A program made the position numbers and the translations under genes. A DNA stretch of 64,000 bases from assembly GCA_028279585.1 (NCBI GenBank), contig JANQNL010000039.1, positions 4,132 through 68,131 on the forward strand. The letters are read 5' to 3'. Below, piece by piece: positions 34,750-37,623 of this stretch. Numbering within the stretch: the first letter of the stretch is position 1; every line of letters begins with the position of its first letter. Source of the DNA: Thermoplasmatota archaeon. Its GTDB lineage: Archaea > Thermoplasmatota > Penumbrarchaeia > JANQNL01. The notes under the pieces were generated by a model, which worked only from the letters and a program-made list of their open reading frames with translations, was not told where the DNA came from and made no database searches.

Positions 34750-37533
34750 TCAGACAGGCTTGACGCCTTCAGCAAATCCCCAGAGACCACCAGGGGTCTC
34801 GTCCACGACACCGTCATCGTCGGTATCCCTCTGCTCGGACCAGATAACCAACGCAGCCTCGTAATCGAAGGTTCCGTTGGAGTTGGAGTCGTAGGCCTCA
34901 TAGCCTGCCATCCAGCTCCGGACCAGCTCCACGTTACCGTCCGTGTCGTTGTCGTAACTCTCGGTGTAGGCCAGTAGCGCCCACTGGTAGTCCTTGTTAC
35001 CATCGTTGTCAGGGTCCTGGTAGGAGTATCCTACCACACCGACGTTGGTGAACTCGGGGCTACCGTCACCGTCCGCGTCCTTCTGGGCCGCAAAGATCAG
35101 GAGCAGTGACTCCTCGTCCTTGACACCGTCGGAATTGTAATCCAAACCTTCGTATCCAGCTACTGCAGAATACATGTCATCAGGTGTACCATCGGTGTTG
35201 TTGTCATATGCAACCACGAAGGTCATCATCGCTCGGGACTGGTCAGCATAACCGTCGGTGTTATTATCTACGGTCTCGAACCCGATCAGTGCGAATGCGG
35301 TCTTTTCCGGGTTGCCGTCATCGTCGTCATCCTGGACATCAGATGCCATGATGAGTATGGCCTCGTGTTCCTTGTTCCCGTCCGAGTCCTCGTCGACGCT
35401 GGAGTATCCACCGATGATGGCCTTTTCGACGTTCTTGACACCGTCTGTGTTATTATCCCAACTTTCGTATATCACCGTGGTGAAGTGCTGCTTCTCCGGG
35501 TTTTTATCTGAGTTGTTGTCGAACTTCTCGAATCCCATGATCACGATGCTCTCATGCTCTGGGTTGCCATCATAGTTACTATCCTCGGAGACAAAGCCCA
35601 TGACGATCACCGCAACATAGTCATCGGTGCCATCGGTGTTGTTGTCCCAGGTCTCTGCACCGGCGATGAAGCCCTTGTAGGTTTCCTGGGTACCATCCGT
35701 GTTGTTGTCCCAAGCTTCCATTCCGACGATGAGCGCTCGCTCGACCTCGTACTTGAAAGGCTTATCAGGATGCTTCTGATACTCGTATCCGAACACCCAC
35801 AGGGACTCGTGATCAGGGACGCCGTCCTCTGAAGGATCGTCGGCCTGGTAACCCCAGACAACGATACCCTCATACTCCCAGATACCGAAGATATCATCGT
35901 TCTCGTTGATACCCTCATATCCTGCAGCGACGCCGGTCCACTGTTCTGGTGCACCATCTGAATCTGCATCGATCTCCTGCCAGTAGGCAACAACGGACCA
36001 TGCATGGTCCTTGATGTTGTTCTCGTTTGGGTCCTCGTATGCGTGGGCAAAGACCCAGGCGTGCTCGAGCTCGTAGATGCCGTCTGTGGTGTTATCGTAG
36101 TATTCGTATCCTACAGCCAGCCAAGCTTCGTACTCTGACTTGTTGTTGGAATTGTTATCGAACATCTCATAGCCGATGACGTAGCCGACACCGTGCTCGG
36201 GGTTACCGTCGGAGTTGTTATCGAGTATGTAGAACTCAAGAAGGTATGCTCGGACGTGTTCCGGGAAGGTGTCGTTGTTCTCGTCAACTTCGTAGTAACC
36301 GAACTGAATAGTGTGCTGGAACTCTGGTATGGTGTCGTTATCAGCATCTGTGAAATTGGTCCAGGTGATCACGTCGTAGTCGAAGTCTGGCTCGCCTTCC
36401 TCGTCGAAGTCCTCGCCCTCGACCCATTCATCCATATCTTCGTAGTCGTCGAACCAGGTCTCTTCCTCATCGACATCTGAGTCGAACTCGACCGGGGCAT
36501 TGGAGATGCTGTCTGGTCCTTCGAGCCAACTGTCCTCGTATGGCATGGTCCCAGTGGTATCGTCGGTGGTGGTATTGATATCATCGTTGAGGTCGATGAA
36601 GTCGTCCTCATACTCGATATCATCCTCCTTTCCTTCCTCGACATCCAGTGCACCATCAAGGCCCTGACCGAAACCGCCAGTGGTTTCTGATAGAGTGTCG
36701 GAGACCACTATGAGGTCCTCCGTATTATTGTCCATCATCTTTTTCTCATCCAACTGATAGTTGGACTTTGTGAAGGACTGGTCTGTTGGGAGTGTGGCGT
36801 TGGACCTTGAGGTCGTCTCGTTGGCGATCTCATGGGTGTCCTTGAGACCCTCAAAGTCCATTGGCTCGTAGTCGCCTATGAGGCCATCGTCGTTCGACTT
36901 CTGGCCCTCGAGGTCGACTCCAAGACCCTTGAGGAGGATGAGCTGGTTGTCGTGGGTGCCATCGTCGTTATCGTCGAGGTCTGGCATCTCATCTTCCATG
37001 CCCTCCTTCTTCTCACTGATCTCCTTATAGTCCTCGTTCTCGGTCAGTGGTGGTTCGGGAGTGTCTCCACCATCCCCGCCGTCGCCACCATCTCCTCCGT
37101 CGCCTCCGTCCCCTCCATCTCCACCATCACCGCCATCTCCGCCGTCTCCACCGTCACCACCATCTCCTCCATCACCGCCATCTCCACCGTCACCGCCATC
37201 TCCACCGTCACCGCCATCTCCACCGTCACCGCCGTCCCCGCCATCGGAACCGTCCCCACCATCTGTTCCATCGACTGGATCTTCTCCACCATTGGACGCT
37301 ATAAGCGCCAACCCAATGACACCGCCAAGTGAGACCATTATGATCAGACCAAGCACGATCACTATAGCAGCGACTATAGGAGCAGATGACTTGGTCGGGG
37401 TCCTTTTGGTCTCCTTTGGAGTGTCCTCTTTGGTATCTGTAGAAGAGTTCTTCTCCTCAGTGGAGCCTTCCTCTACGGTTGGTTCCTCCTCTGGGGTCTC
37501 GATCTCTTCATTGTTTTCTTCTTCTATGCCCAT
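34750..37533 (-). CDS. Membrane-anchored surface protein with (GGD)n linker, acidic region and about 24 x 21-residue DxNxDG repeats
   Basis: Acidic N-terminus, then the TM helix 'APIVAAIVIVLGLIIMVSLGGVIGLALIA', then the GGD repeat, then the repeat array. ATG at 37533 is preceded by GGAGGTGA at 5-nt spacing; the track start at 37542 is the GTG inside that Shine-Dalgarno sequence. TATA-like TTTATATAA lies on the minus strand at 37593-37601. Confidence 0.8.
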   Translation of the reverse strand: MGIEEENNEEIETPEEEPTVEEGSTEEKNSSTDTKEDTPKETKRTPTKSSAPIVAAIVIVLGLIIMVSLGGVIGLALIASNGGEDPVDGTDGGDGSDGGDGGDGGDGGDGGDGGDGGDGGDGGDGGDGGDGGDGGDGGDGGDGGDGGDGGDGGDGGDTPEPPLTENEDYKEISEKKEGMEDEMPDLDDNDDGTHDNQLILLKGLGVDLEGQKSNDDGLIGDYEPMDFEGLKDTHEIANETTSRSNATLPTDQSFTKSNYQLDEKKMMDNNTEDLIVVSDTLSETTGGFGQGLDGALDVEEGKEDDIEYEDDFIDLNDDINTTTDDTTGTMPYEDSWLEGPDSISNAPVEFDSDVDEEETWFDDYEDMDEWVEGEDFDEEGEPDFDYDVITWTNFTDADNDTIPEFQHTIQFGYYEVDENNDTFPEHVRAYLLEFYILDNNSDGNPEHGVGYVIGYEMFDNNSNNKSEYEAWLAVGYEYYDNTTDGIYELEHAWVFAHAYEDPNENNIKDHAWSVVAYWQEIDADSDGAPEQWTGVAAGYEGINENDDIFGIWEYEGIVVWGYQADDPSEDGVPDHESLWVFGYEYQKHPDKPFKYEVERALIVGMEAWDNNTDGTQETYKGFIAGAETWDNNTDGTDDYVAVIVMGFVSEDSNYDGNPEHESIVIMGFEKFDNNSDKNPEKQHFTTVIYESWDNNTDGVKNVEKAIIGGYSSVDEDSDGNKEHEAILIMASDVQDDDDDGNPEKTAFALIGFETVDNNTDGYADQSRAMMTFVVAYDNNTDGTPDDMYSAVAGYEGLDYNSDGVKDEESLLLIFAAQKDADGDGSPEFTNVGVVGYSYQDPDNDGNKDYQWALLAYTESYDNDTDGNVELVRSWMAGYEAYDSNSNGTFDYEAALVIWSEQRDTDDDGVVDETPGGLWGFAEGVKPV
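34753..36320 (-). repeat. About 24 tandem 19-23-residue protein repeats, consensus h-h-h-G-(Y/F)-E-x-h-D-x-N-x-D-G-x-x-E-x-x-x
   Basis: Example units: 'IVGMEAWDNNTDGTQETYKG', 'FIAGAETWDNNTDGTDDYVAV', 'IVMGFVSEDSNYDGNPEHESI', 'VIMGFEKFDNNSDKNPEKQHFT', 'AVAGYEGLDYNSDGVKDEESL' and 'LLAYTESYDNDTDGNVELVRS'. Confidence 0.8.
37064..37263 (-). repeat. Coding tandem repeat, 9-bp unit x about 22 (encodes GGDGGDGGD...)
   Basis: The plus strand reads ..CACCGCCATCTCCACCGTCACCGCCATCTCCACCGTC.. with 9/18-bp periodicity. Confidence 0.9.
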
Positions 37534-37623
37534 GTTTTTCACCTCCAGGGTGTATCTATTCTATGTCTGTCGGAATAAAAACATGGAACCTCTTATATAA
37601 AGGTTGATGGAACTTTGTTATGC

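Follow-up and report, generated by a model that had tools for sequence, protein, structure and literature searches.

The gene and its repeat array

We analysed a 64,000-nucleotide stretch of contig JANQNL010000039.1 from a Thermoplasmatota archaeon (assembly GCA_028279585.1, positions 4,132 to 68,131), here called the window. On its reverse strand a single open reading frame (34750..37542, stop codon included) encodes a protein of 930 amino acids (aa) from the listed GTG start. We found that aa 387-926 of this protein (34765..36384, reverse strand) make up an array of 25 units of 21 residues, read as 26 beta-strands of 12 residues with intervening 9-residue DxNxDGxx[ED] loops. Periodicity, a motif count, an AlphaFold2 (AF2) model and covariation between units support this array. 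An earlier note on this DNA had described about 24 tandem units with an end at 36320. The tandem array was confirmed, with small corrections: there are 25 units, which make 26 strands, and on the reverse strand the array starts at 36384, 64 nt upstream of the coordinate given. The same note had the repeats tethered by an N-terminal transmembrane helix and a (GGD)n spacer, and both were located (aa 54-82 and aa ~84-160), together with a long acidic linker that is predicted to be disordered.

The BLOSUM autocorrelation of the array at a lag of 21 residues was 0.82-0.86 (z = 18.8 against 200 shuffles). The unit consensus was x-h-h-h-h-G-[YF]-E-x-h-D-x-N-x-D-G-x-x-[ED]-x-x, which recovers the pattern written down in the earlier note, and both of the units quoted there are present. 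The motif Dx[DNST]x[DN][GADN]xx[DE] was matched by 19 of the 25 loops, while shuffled sequences of the same composition gave a mean of 0.41 matches and a maximum of 4 (2000 shuffles). The sole register slip in the array is one of 1-2 residues near units 8-10, in an irregular stretch (aa ~539-601, 35740..35928, reverse strand) that has the degenerate loops NENDDIFGI and HPDKPFKYE and longer strands in the AF2 model (E578-591 and E594-611). The array contains 123 aspartate and glutamate (D+E) against 21 lysine and arginine (K+R) residues, and the whole protein 242 against 40. No cysteine is present in the protein. Since Tandem Repeats Finder detected no DNA-level tandem repeat within the array, the 21-residue units appear to be old and diverged.

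Predicted fold and pairing of neighbouring units

We ran AF2 on aa 385-930 with an alignment of 36 sequences. The model had a mean predicted local distance difference test score (pLDDT) of 92.0 and a predicted template modelling score (pTM) of 0.81, and consisted of 26 strands of 12 residues and loops of 9 residues. The loops coincide exactly with the DxNxDGxxE segments, and a run on the full-length protein reproduced the fold of the array. The array is thus predicted to be ordered, as the earlier note had expected. The pLDDT of the monomer falls at both ends of the array.

When the model was compared with the PDB using Foldseek, only large antiparallel meander sheets were matched. The best global match was the beta-belt of apoB100 (chain 9coo_A), with template modelling (TM) scores of 0.44/0.54 and a probability of 1.0. 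Barrels (TonB-dependent receptors, LptD, SlpA and porins) gave TM scores of at most 0.21 and propellers (DDB1) of at most 0.08. There was no beta-helix, beta-roll or solenoid among the Foldseek PDB matches. On the basis of these scores and of the lower pLDDT at the ends, the array is predicted to be an open, gently curved ribbon.

Covariation between units offered a test that is independent of AlphaFold. We took 771 distinct adjacent unit pairs from 96 proteins that carry the repeat and computed, for every position p of unit n and every position q of unit n+1, their mutual information with average product correction (APC-MI). The top covarying pairs were (5,4), (2,7), (7,2), (3,6), (6,3), (4,5) and (1,8), all of which satisfy p+q = 9. 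The mean APC-MI on this antidiagonal was 0.084 (z = 23.9 against within-protein partner shuffles), and all other registers were near 0. This pattern of sequence covariation argues for antiparallel pairing of neighbouring units, with residues 10 and 20 closing each loop. The register names specific cross-strand neighbours: G6 is paired with a large aliphatic residue at position 3, the aromatic residue at 7 with a small residue at 2, position 4 with 5, and E8 with an arginine, lysine or histidine at position 1.

The earlier note had predicted a calcium-studded beta-solenoid or a stacked-hairpin rod. A parallel beta-solenoid or beta-roll whose turns span 42 residues and hold Ca2+, as in RTX proteins, would fit the regular alternation of strands and calcium-type loops, and DSSP assignments alone are blind to the difference between parallel and antiparallel strands. 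However, the antidiagonal covariation of units n and n+1 excludes parallel pairing, Foldseek returned neither a beta-helix nor a beta-roll, and the hydrophobic residues of the strands are contiguous rather than alternating. We give the solenoid almost no chance. The stacked hairpins of the earlier note are essentially what the register indicates, but in place of a rod they are predicted to form a flat, open sheet with a width of about 4 nm and a length of about 12 nm.

The odd period and the odd pairing sum (in strand index) bear on the two faces of this sheet. Because both are odd, a given strand position should, by regular beta geometry, point to opposite faces in successive strands, which would make the two faces equivalent and give the sheet a pseudo-two-fold screw axis. 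In the window protein positions 3, 4, 5 and 7 are hydrophobic in 92, 92, 84 and 76% of units (58-68% for these positions across the family), and family-wide positions 2-7 are hydrophobic in 47-68%, without alternation. Each face would therefore carry a hydrophobic midline stripe formed by positions 2-7 and bordered by a row of Glu8-Arg/Lys/His1 pairs. Two hydrophobic faces are unusual for a monomeric single-layer sheet, and it is chiefly for this reason that we suspect the sheet of associating with itself or with a partner.

A rare family of 21-residue repeat proteins

We recovered 35 relatives by a word-seeded search of 5.8 billion proteins. Their E values reached 6e-64, they share 24-40% identity with the window protein, and they carry the same 21-residue DNNS[DN]G units. 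We also searched 1.84 billion cluster representatives exhaustively with a hidden Markov model (HMM) profile of two units. There were 123 matches at E<=1e-3, 48 at E<=1e-10 and 8 at E<=1e-30. About one third of the weak matches were other things, namely SdrD_B, FG-GAP_3, a TSP3-like repeat of 21 residues that is rich in Cys, and a relative whose period is 41-42 residues. The 21-residue family is rare. Among the collected proteins the loop-to-loop spacing was 21 residues in 783 cases, the next commonest spacing was 42 (101 cases), and spacings of 20 and 22 fell outside the 15 commonest, each of which was seen at least 13 times. The loop logo of the family is D-x-[ND]-S-[DN]-G-N-P-[ED], preceded by a variable hydrophobic strand. 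In three proteins (P0040, P0046 and P0053) we noted units of 41-42 residues, 'Y-x-DADSDGNPE', with only a sub-threshold FG-GAP_3 match; such units may be related to the 21-residue unit at twice its length.

The architecture of the family is consistent. The array is the C-terminal part in all 53 full-length members, 47 of which have an N-terminal hydrophobic segment, and a C-terminal anchor or hydrophobic segment was found in 0 of the 53. Ahead of the array the relatives have stalks of CarboxypepD_reg/Ig-like or PKD domains, which are typical of surface proteins. The window protein has the (GGD)n spacer where its relatives have the Ig/PKD stalk, and a transmembrane helix rather than a lipobox. 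It has exact 21-residue units and a C-terminal array behind an N-terminal anchor, as the uncatalogued Thermoplasmatota family does.

Within the 3.8-Mb genome of the window (85% complete) the repeat was found in this gene only. When 300 other genomes of the phylum were sampled, 25 had it, and with the window's own genome counted it occurs in 21 of 137 genera. A search of genome contigs with the window protein alone as the query found no relative, and no contig record encoding the window protein itself was found. Two relatives bear NCBI names of Thermoplasmatota/Thermoplasmata metagenome-assembled genomes, one of them matching a genome of the same class at 64.5% identity, the homologue loci contain archaeal genes, and homologues resembling those of Marine Group II (MGII) archaea are among the matches (P0020-P0028). 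Two public labels look wrong. P0008 (WP_455392298.1) is labelled '[Eubacterium] cellulosolvens', yet its contig has archaeal-type synteny as in locus L024, and P0018 has the JGI name 'predicted Mrr-cat superfamily restriction endonuclease', although it is a ribbon-protein fragment.

The 84-residue super-period and the length of the array

In addition to the 21-residue period, the array has a super-period of four units, with an autocorrelation of 0.96 at a lag of 84 residues versus 0.86 at a lag of 21. Lag 84 was also the strongest in several subfamilies, and lag 42 dominated in the MGII-like ones. The family consensus places DNNS[DN]G loops at every fourth unit. We then separated the p+q=9 signal by junction phase and obtained z = 8.5, 4.1, 3.1 and 10.9. 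Since the signal is above shuffles at all four phases, two of them weak, no class of junction is without hairpin pairing.

The span of the array is sharply modal at 25.0-25.7 units (22 arrays), across subfamilies that share only 25-30% identity. Other length classes among the family proteins (P0002-P0152) have 7+7, 15, 17 and ~21 units. The first of these corresponds to a 720-aa subfamily (P0029-P0036), in which two arrays of ~7 units stand on either side of a non-repeat insert of ~190 aa. The simplest account of the modal length is an ancestral amplification of a four-unit block (6 x 4 + 1-2) whose copy number is now frozen because no DNA-level identity remains.

A fixed size would also be explained if the sheet were closed in vivo, as a ring or barrel of one or several chains, or were stacked face to face in an oligomer or two-dimensional lattice. 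The modal span across subfamilies, the hydrophobic character of both faces and the high pTM for so long an object are consistent with this. However, AF2 gives an open monomer whose pLDDT drops at both ends, 22-30-stranded barrels gave TM scores of at most 0.21, the other subfamilies have different numbers of units, and the stasis in copy number may merely reflect the absence of DNA-level identity. We regard a closed or stacked state as rather unlikely.

Comparison with known families and structures

We found no catalogued family to which the repeat belongs. An hmmscan of the 930-aa protein against Pfam-A gave 0 families at E<=10, with FG-GAP, FG-GAP_3, VCBS, RTX, EF-hand, TSP3 and dockerin included, and NCBIfam likewise gave 0 families at E<=10. 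For the homologues P0002, P0019 and P0037 a Pfam scan likewise gave 0 families. Sequence searches of the PDB with the array and with the two-unit profile found no relative; the best matches were EF-hand and lanmodulin loops with insignificant E values of 0.01-0.9, and a designed propeller was also returned in which no individual stretch was significant. A literature search found no description of a 21-residue calcium-loop beta-sheet repeat. The array belongs to an uncatalogued protein family without a public name. The claims of the earlier note that the repeat is unrecognised and is not RTX, TSP3, dockerin or FG-GAP thus stand, the latter as judged by model match. Its likening of the loop to half of a TSP3 or EF-hand site does not, as the loop has the 9-residue strand-loop-strand form of a calcium blade, with the last acidic ligand two residues past the Gly.

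Several candidate assignments were rejected. The EF-hand is a helix-loop-helix with a 12-residue loop and a Glu at position 12, whereas the window loops are flanked by predicted strands, have the acidic ligand at position 9 and lack a Pfam match. TSP3/TSP3_bac (PF18884), with DxDxDGxxDxxD and conserved Cys, and dockerin, with paired loop-helix segments of 22-24 aa, were rejected on the absence of cysteines, of a Pfam match and of helices in the array. RTX (PF00353), with its tandem GGxGxDxUx and parallel beta-roll, was rejected on the absence of a Pfam match, the period of 21 and the antiparallel register. The window array does resemble the RTX beta-roll and the Ca2+-bound beta-helix of the MpIBP type in being made of short tandem repeats in an exported acidic protein, with one Ca2+ per repeat expected to drive folding outside the cell. 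In contrast to RTX, a parallel two-sheet roll of 9-residue GGxGxDxUx repeats, its strands have 12 residues, are antiparallel and form a single layer, and GGxGxD is absent.

The closest likeness in the loop is to calcium blades. In these the Dx[DN]xDG motif lies in a strand-turn-strand context with a later ligand two residues past the motif, as in integrin alpha, and they show a strong bias toward secreted and surface proteins (Rigden et al. 2011, PMC3123361). Integrin-alpha/FG-GAP (PF01839) and FG-GAP_3/VCBS (PF13517) repeats are extracellular and share with the window array the 9-residue Dx[DN]xDGxx[DE] loop between two strands. This context was found here in the 19 loops that match the motif, and strands flank every loop in the AF2 model. 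Membership of the calcium-blade propellers was rejected, because HMM matches, closure of four-stranded blades into a 7- or 8-bladed propeller and profile similarity beyond the loop all failed, with a small doubt about the blades left by the 84-residue super-period.

Since the loop motif is identical to that of calcium blades, we considered a divergent propeller of the FG-GAP/VCBS type with six four-stranded blades of 84 residues and two extra strands. The 84-residue super-period, the DNNS[DN]G loop at every fourth unit and the weaker hairpin covariation at two phases would fit such blades. Against this, no FG-GAP, FG-GAP_3 or VCBS match was found in Pfam at E<=10, and PDB propellers gave TM scores of at most 0.08. 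An hhalign comparison of the family profile with six FG-GAP_3 blades of the bacterial protein P0047 gave a probability of 0.8%, with only 7 motif columns aligned. The strands are uniformly 12 residues long, and the hairpin register is found at all four phases. The motif is in every loop, at every hairpin and on both edges of the sheet, whereas propellers have it once per four-stranded blade, and the period is 21 residues versus ~55-60, in an open meander versus a closed propeller. We consider a propeller very unlikely.

The module would act as a calcium-blade hairpin repeated along an open sheet, and in its predicted shape it is most like the beta-belt of apoB100. This belt is one unbroken, amphipathic layer of beta-sheet, ~4 nm wide, whose strands have a mean length of 11 residues (PMC11839476). 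Like it, the window array would be a long open single-layer antiparallel sheet with strands of ~11-12 residues and the same width. The two share 6% identity and no sequence relation, and while apoB has one lipid-facing side and no calcium loops, the window sheet would have equivalent faces and edges of calcium-type loops. MORN repeats (PMC7725318) and the central sheet of OspA are also extended antiparallel sheets of short tandem units without a second layer. However, the MORN unit is a 23-residue hairpin of two short strands without a metal site, whereas the window unit is one strand that is twice as long, with loops on both edges.

Bacterial TSP3-like repeats also share features with the window array. 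P0047, an FG-GAP_3/ASPIC/PKD/Por_Secre_tail protein, has ~22 copies of a Cys-containing repeat at aa 590-1060 (DSDSDGVPDGCDICAAGDDSV). These repeats have a 21-residue period and a DxDxDGxxD loop and cross-match to the repeat profile. Unlike the Cys-free window protein, they are rich in Cys and braced by disulfides, and they lack a hydrophobic strand.

The calcium-type loops and a proposed surface ribbon

From the motif we infer, on good grounds, that the loops bind calcium. Each intact loop (19-22 of the 25) would hold one Ca2+ through the side chains of loop positions 1, 3, 5 and 9 and the carbonyl of position 7, as in integrin-type calcium blades. Each unit would contribute a strand of 12 residues and a loop of 9, and position p of one unit would lie opposite position 9-p of the next. 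Since neighbouring strands appear to pair antiparallel, successive loops would lie on opposite edges of a single, continuous and open sheet of 26 strands with the dimensions given above. About 20 bound Ca2+ would cut much of the charge repulsion within the array, which makes Ca2+-dependent folding outside the cell plausible, as for RTX. In this scheme Ca2+ would neutralise the loops, and the module would fold and stiffen only outside the cell. The protein would be a type-II (N-in, C-out) membrane-anchored surface protein whose distal half is a calcium-stapled beta-ribbon, held off the membrane by a disordered polyanionic tether of ~300 residues. The hydrophobic faces would serve as contact surfaces for self-association or for a partner.

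We favour, with moderate confidence, this reading of the array as a calcium-stapled beta-ribbon displayed on the cell surface. The periodicity, the family, the fold prediction, the strand register and the topology elements come from the computation, while we infer the function, Ca2+ occupancy, Ca2+-dependent folding and surface display. Several points weigh against it. Two hydrophobic faces on a sheet of one layer would be physically unusual in a monomer, and the actual state may be an oligomer or a packing that a monomer prediction would not reveal. The alignment given to AF2 held only 36 sequences, and the predicted global shape is taken from Foldseek scores. The 84-residue super-period together with the two weak phases (z = 3.1 and 4.1) leaves some room for a four-strand super-unit. 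The window gene has no conserved neighbour that hints at a function.

The fold might also be as described with a role that is ionic and not adhesive, the protein acting as a polyanionic cation sponge or as a surface coat for minerals or particles, which would buffer or capture Ca2+, Mg2+ or metals or attach to mineral surfaces. The excess of 242 D+E over 40 K+R residues in the whole protein suits this, as the (GGD)n spacer and acidic linker come on top of ~20 loop sites, and the two rows of sites would be regularly spaced along the sheet edges. However, the conserved hydrophobic core of the strands and the exact register point to a selected folded scaffold and not to charge alone, and no transport- or mineral-related genes are linked to the window gene. 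We consider a purely ionic role unlikely.

A further possibility, which we hold to be improbable, is that the array is a fixed-size, two-faced beta-belt of 26 strands that self-assembles (as a stack, ring or two-dimensional lattice) or wraps a hydrophobic or lipid surface. If so, it would be a prokaryotic counterpart of the apoB-type belt and a candidate envelope scaffold for Thermoplasmatota without a classical wall, and the 84-residue super-period would be a real four-strand structural super-unit.

Surface proteins built of tandem repeats are well known, and so are Dx[DN]xDG loops that bind calcium. For a predicted open 26-stranded sheet in which every hairpin is closed by such a loop we found no catalogued family, solved structure or paper. 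If the prediction of the calcium-stapled ribbon holds, it would be a new repeat architecture, in which each repeat supplies a single strand, the period is odd, the two faces are equivalent and the metal sites run in two rows. It would also be a natural calcium-switchable flat beta-scaffold of defined size, and would open a way into the cell surface of uncultivated Thermoplasmatota, a group to which the abundant Marine Group II archaea belong and whose surfaces are almost unknown.

We also noted that the array has 15 N-x-S/T sequons, 10 of them at one loop position, DNN[ST]DG, where the Asn is loop position 2. N-glycans on these Asn residues would be borne by the calcium loops of this archaeal surface protein.

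Start site and N-terminal half of the protein

The features upstream of the array all lie on the reverse strand. The GTG at 37542 sits within a Shine-Dalgarno-like GGAGGTG (37546-37540), with an ATG 6 nt later. For this reason the ATG at 37533 is the likelier start, which would give a protein of 927 aa. A TATA-like box, TTTATATAA (37593..37601), is found ~60 nt upstream of this ATG and may act as the promoter.

The first 53 residues (37384..37542) form an acidic tail with K/R residues at its end, ahead of the membrane helix, and are predicted from the positive-inside rule to be cytoplasmic. A single transmembrane helix, a probable signal anchor, follows at aa 54-82 (37297..37383), where AF2 places helix H54-82 and the hydrophobic stretch reads APIVAAIVIVLGLIIMVSLGGVIGLALIA. 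The (GGD)n spacer (37063..37293) is encoded by a near-perfect tandem DNA repeat of period 9 bp with 22.3 copies (37064-37264, Tandem Repeats Finder) and is, because of this repeat, probably variable in length. The acidic linker, aa 161-386 (36385..37062), contains 76 D+E against 11 K+R residues. A lone DDNDDGTHD loop lies at aa 190 of the linker, part of which can be aligned with the linker of homologues in the alignment consensus. The array is followed by four residues and the stop codon (34750..34764), without a C-terminal anchor.

In the full-length AF2 model residues 1-378 had pLDDT <50 except for helix 54-82, the acidic tail and the spacer included, and no packing of the acidic half onto the array was predicted. 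This suggests that the N-terminal half, apart from the transmembrane helix, is disordered.

Genes beside the window gene and its homologues

On one side the gene is flanked by a gene for a TMEM164-family membrane protein and on the other by a small AT-rich islet with a GNAT gene and a GmrSD-like gene. At three loci of canonical family members (L024 6716-10814, L032 6667-10794 and L022 7081-12212) a membrane protein of 259-265 aa without a Pfam match is encoded divergently upstream of the ribbon gene, and in two of the three this micro-synteny begins with a small HTH_45 winged-helix gene ahead of the membrane protein. The membrane proteins share 27% identity between two of the loci. A link of the window gene to the membrane protein and the winged-helix gene was rejected, as neither adjoins it.

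The window genome does encode a homologue of the 259-265-aa protein, on another contig (L031 = G000:C123:1-1704; 293 aa, E 6e-25). Divergent from this gene lies a surface-protein gene that is truncated by the contig end and encodes a lipobox (LGAC), a beta-domain and a poly-E/D stretch. No similarity was detected between this truncated protein and the N-termini of the family. The truncated gene may be a second, unassembled member of the family, and the window protein looks like a divergent, stand-alone paralogue.

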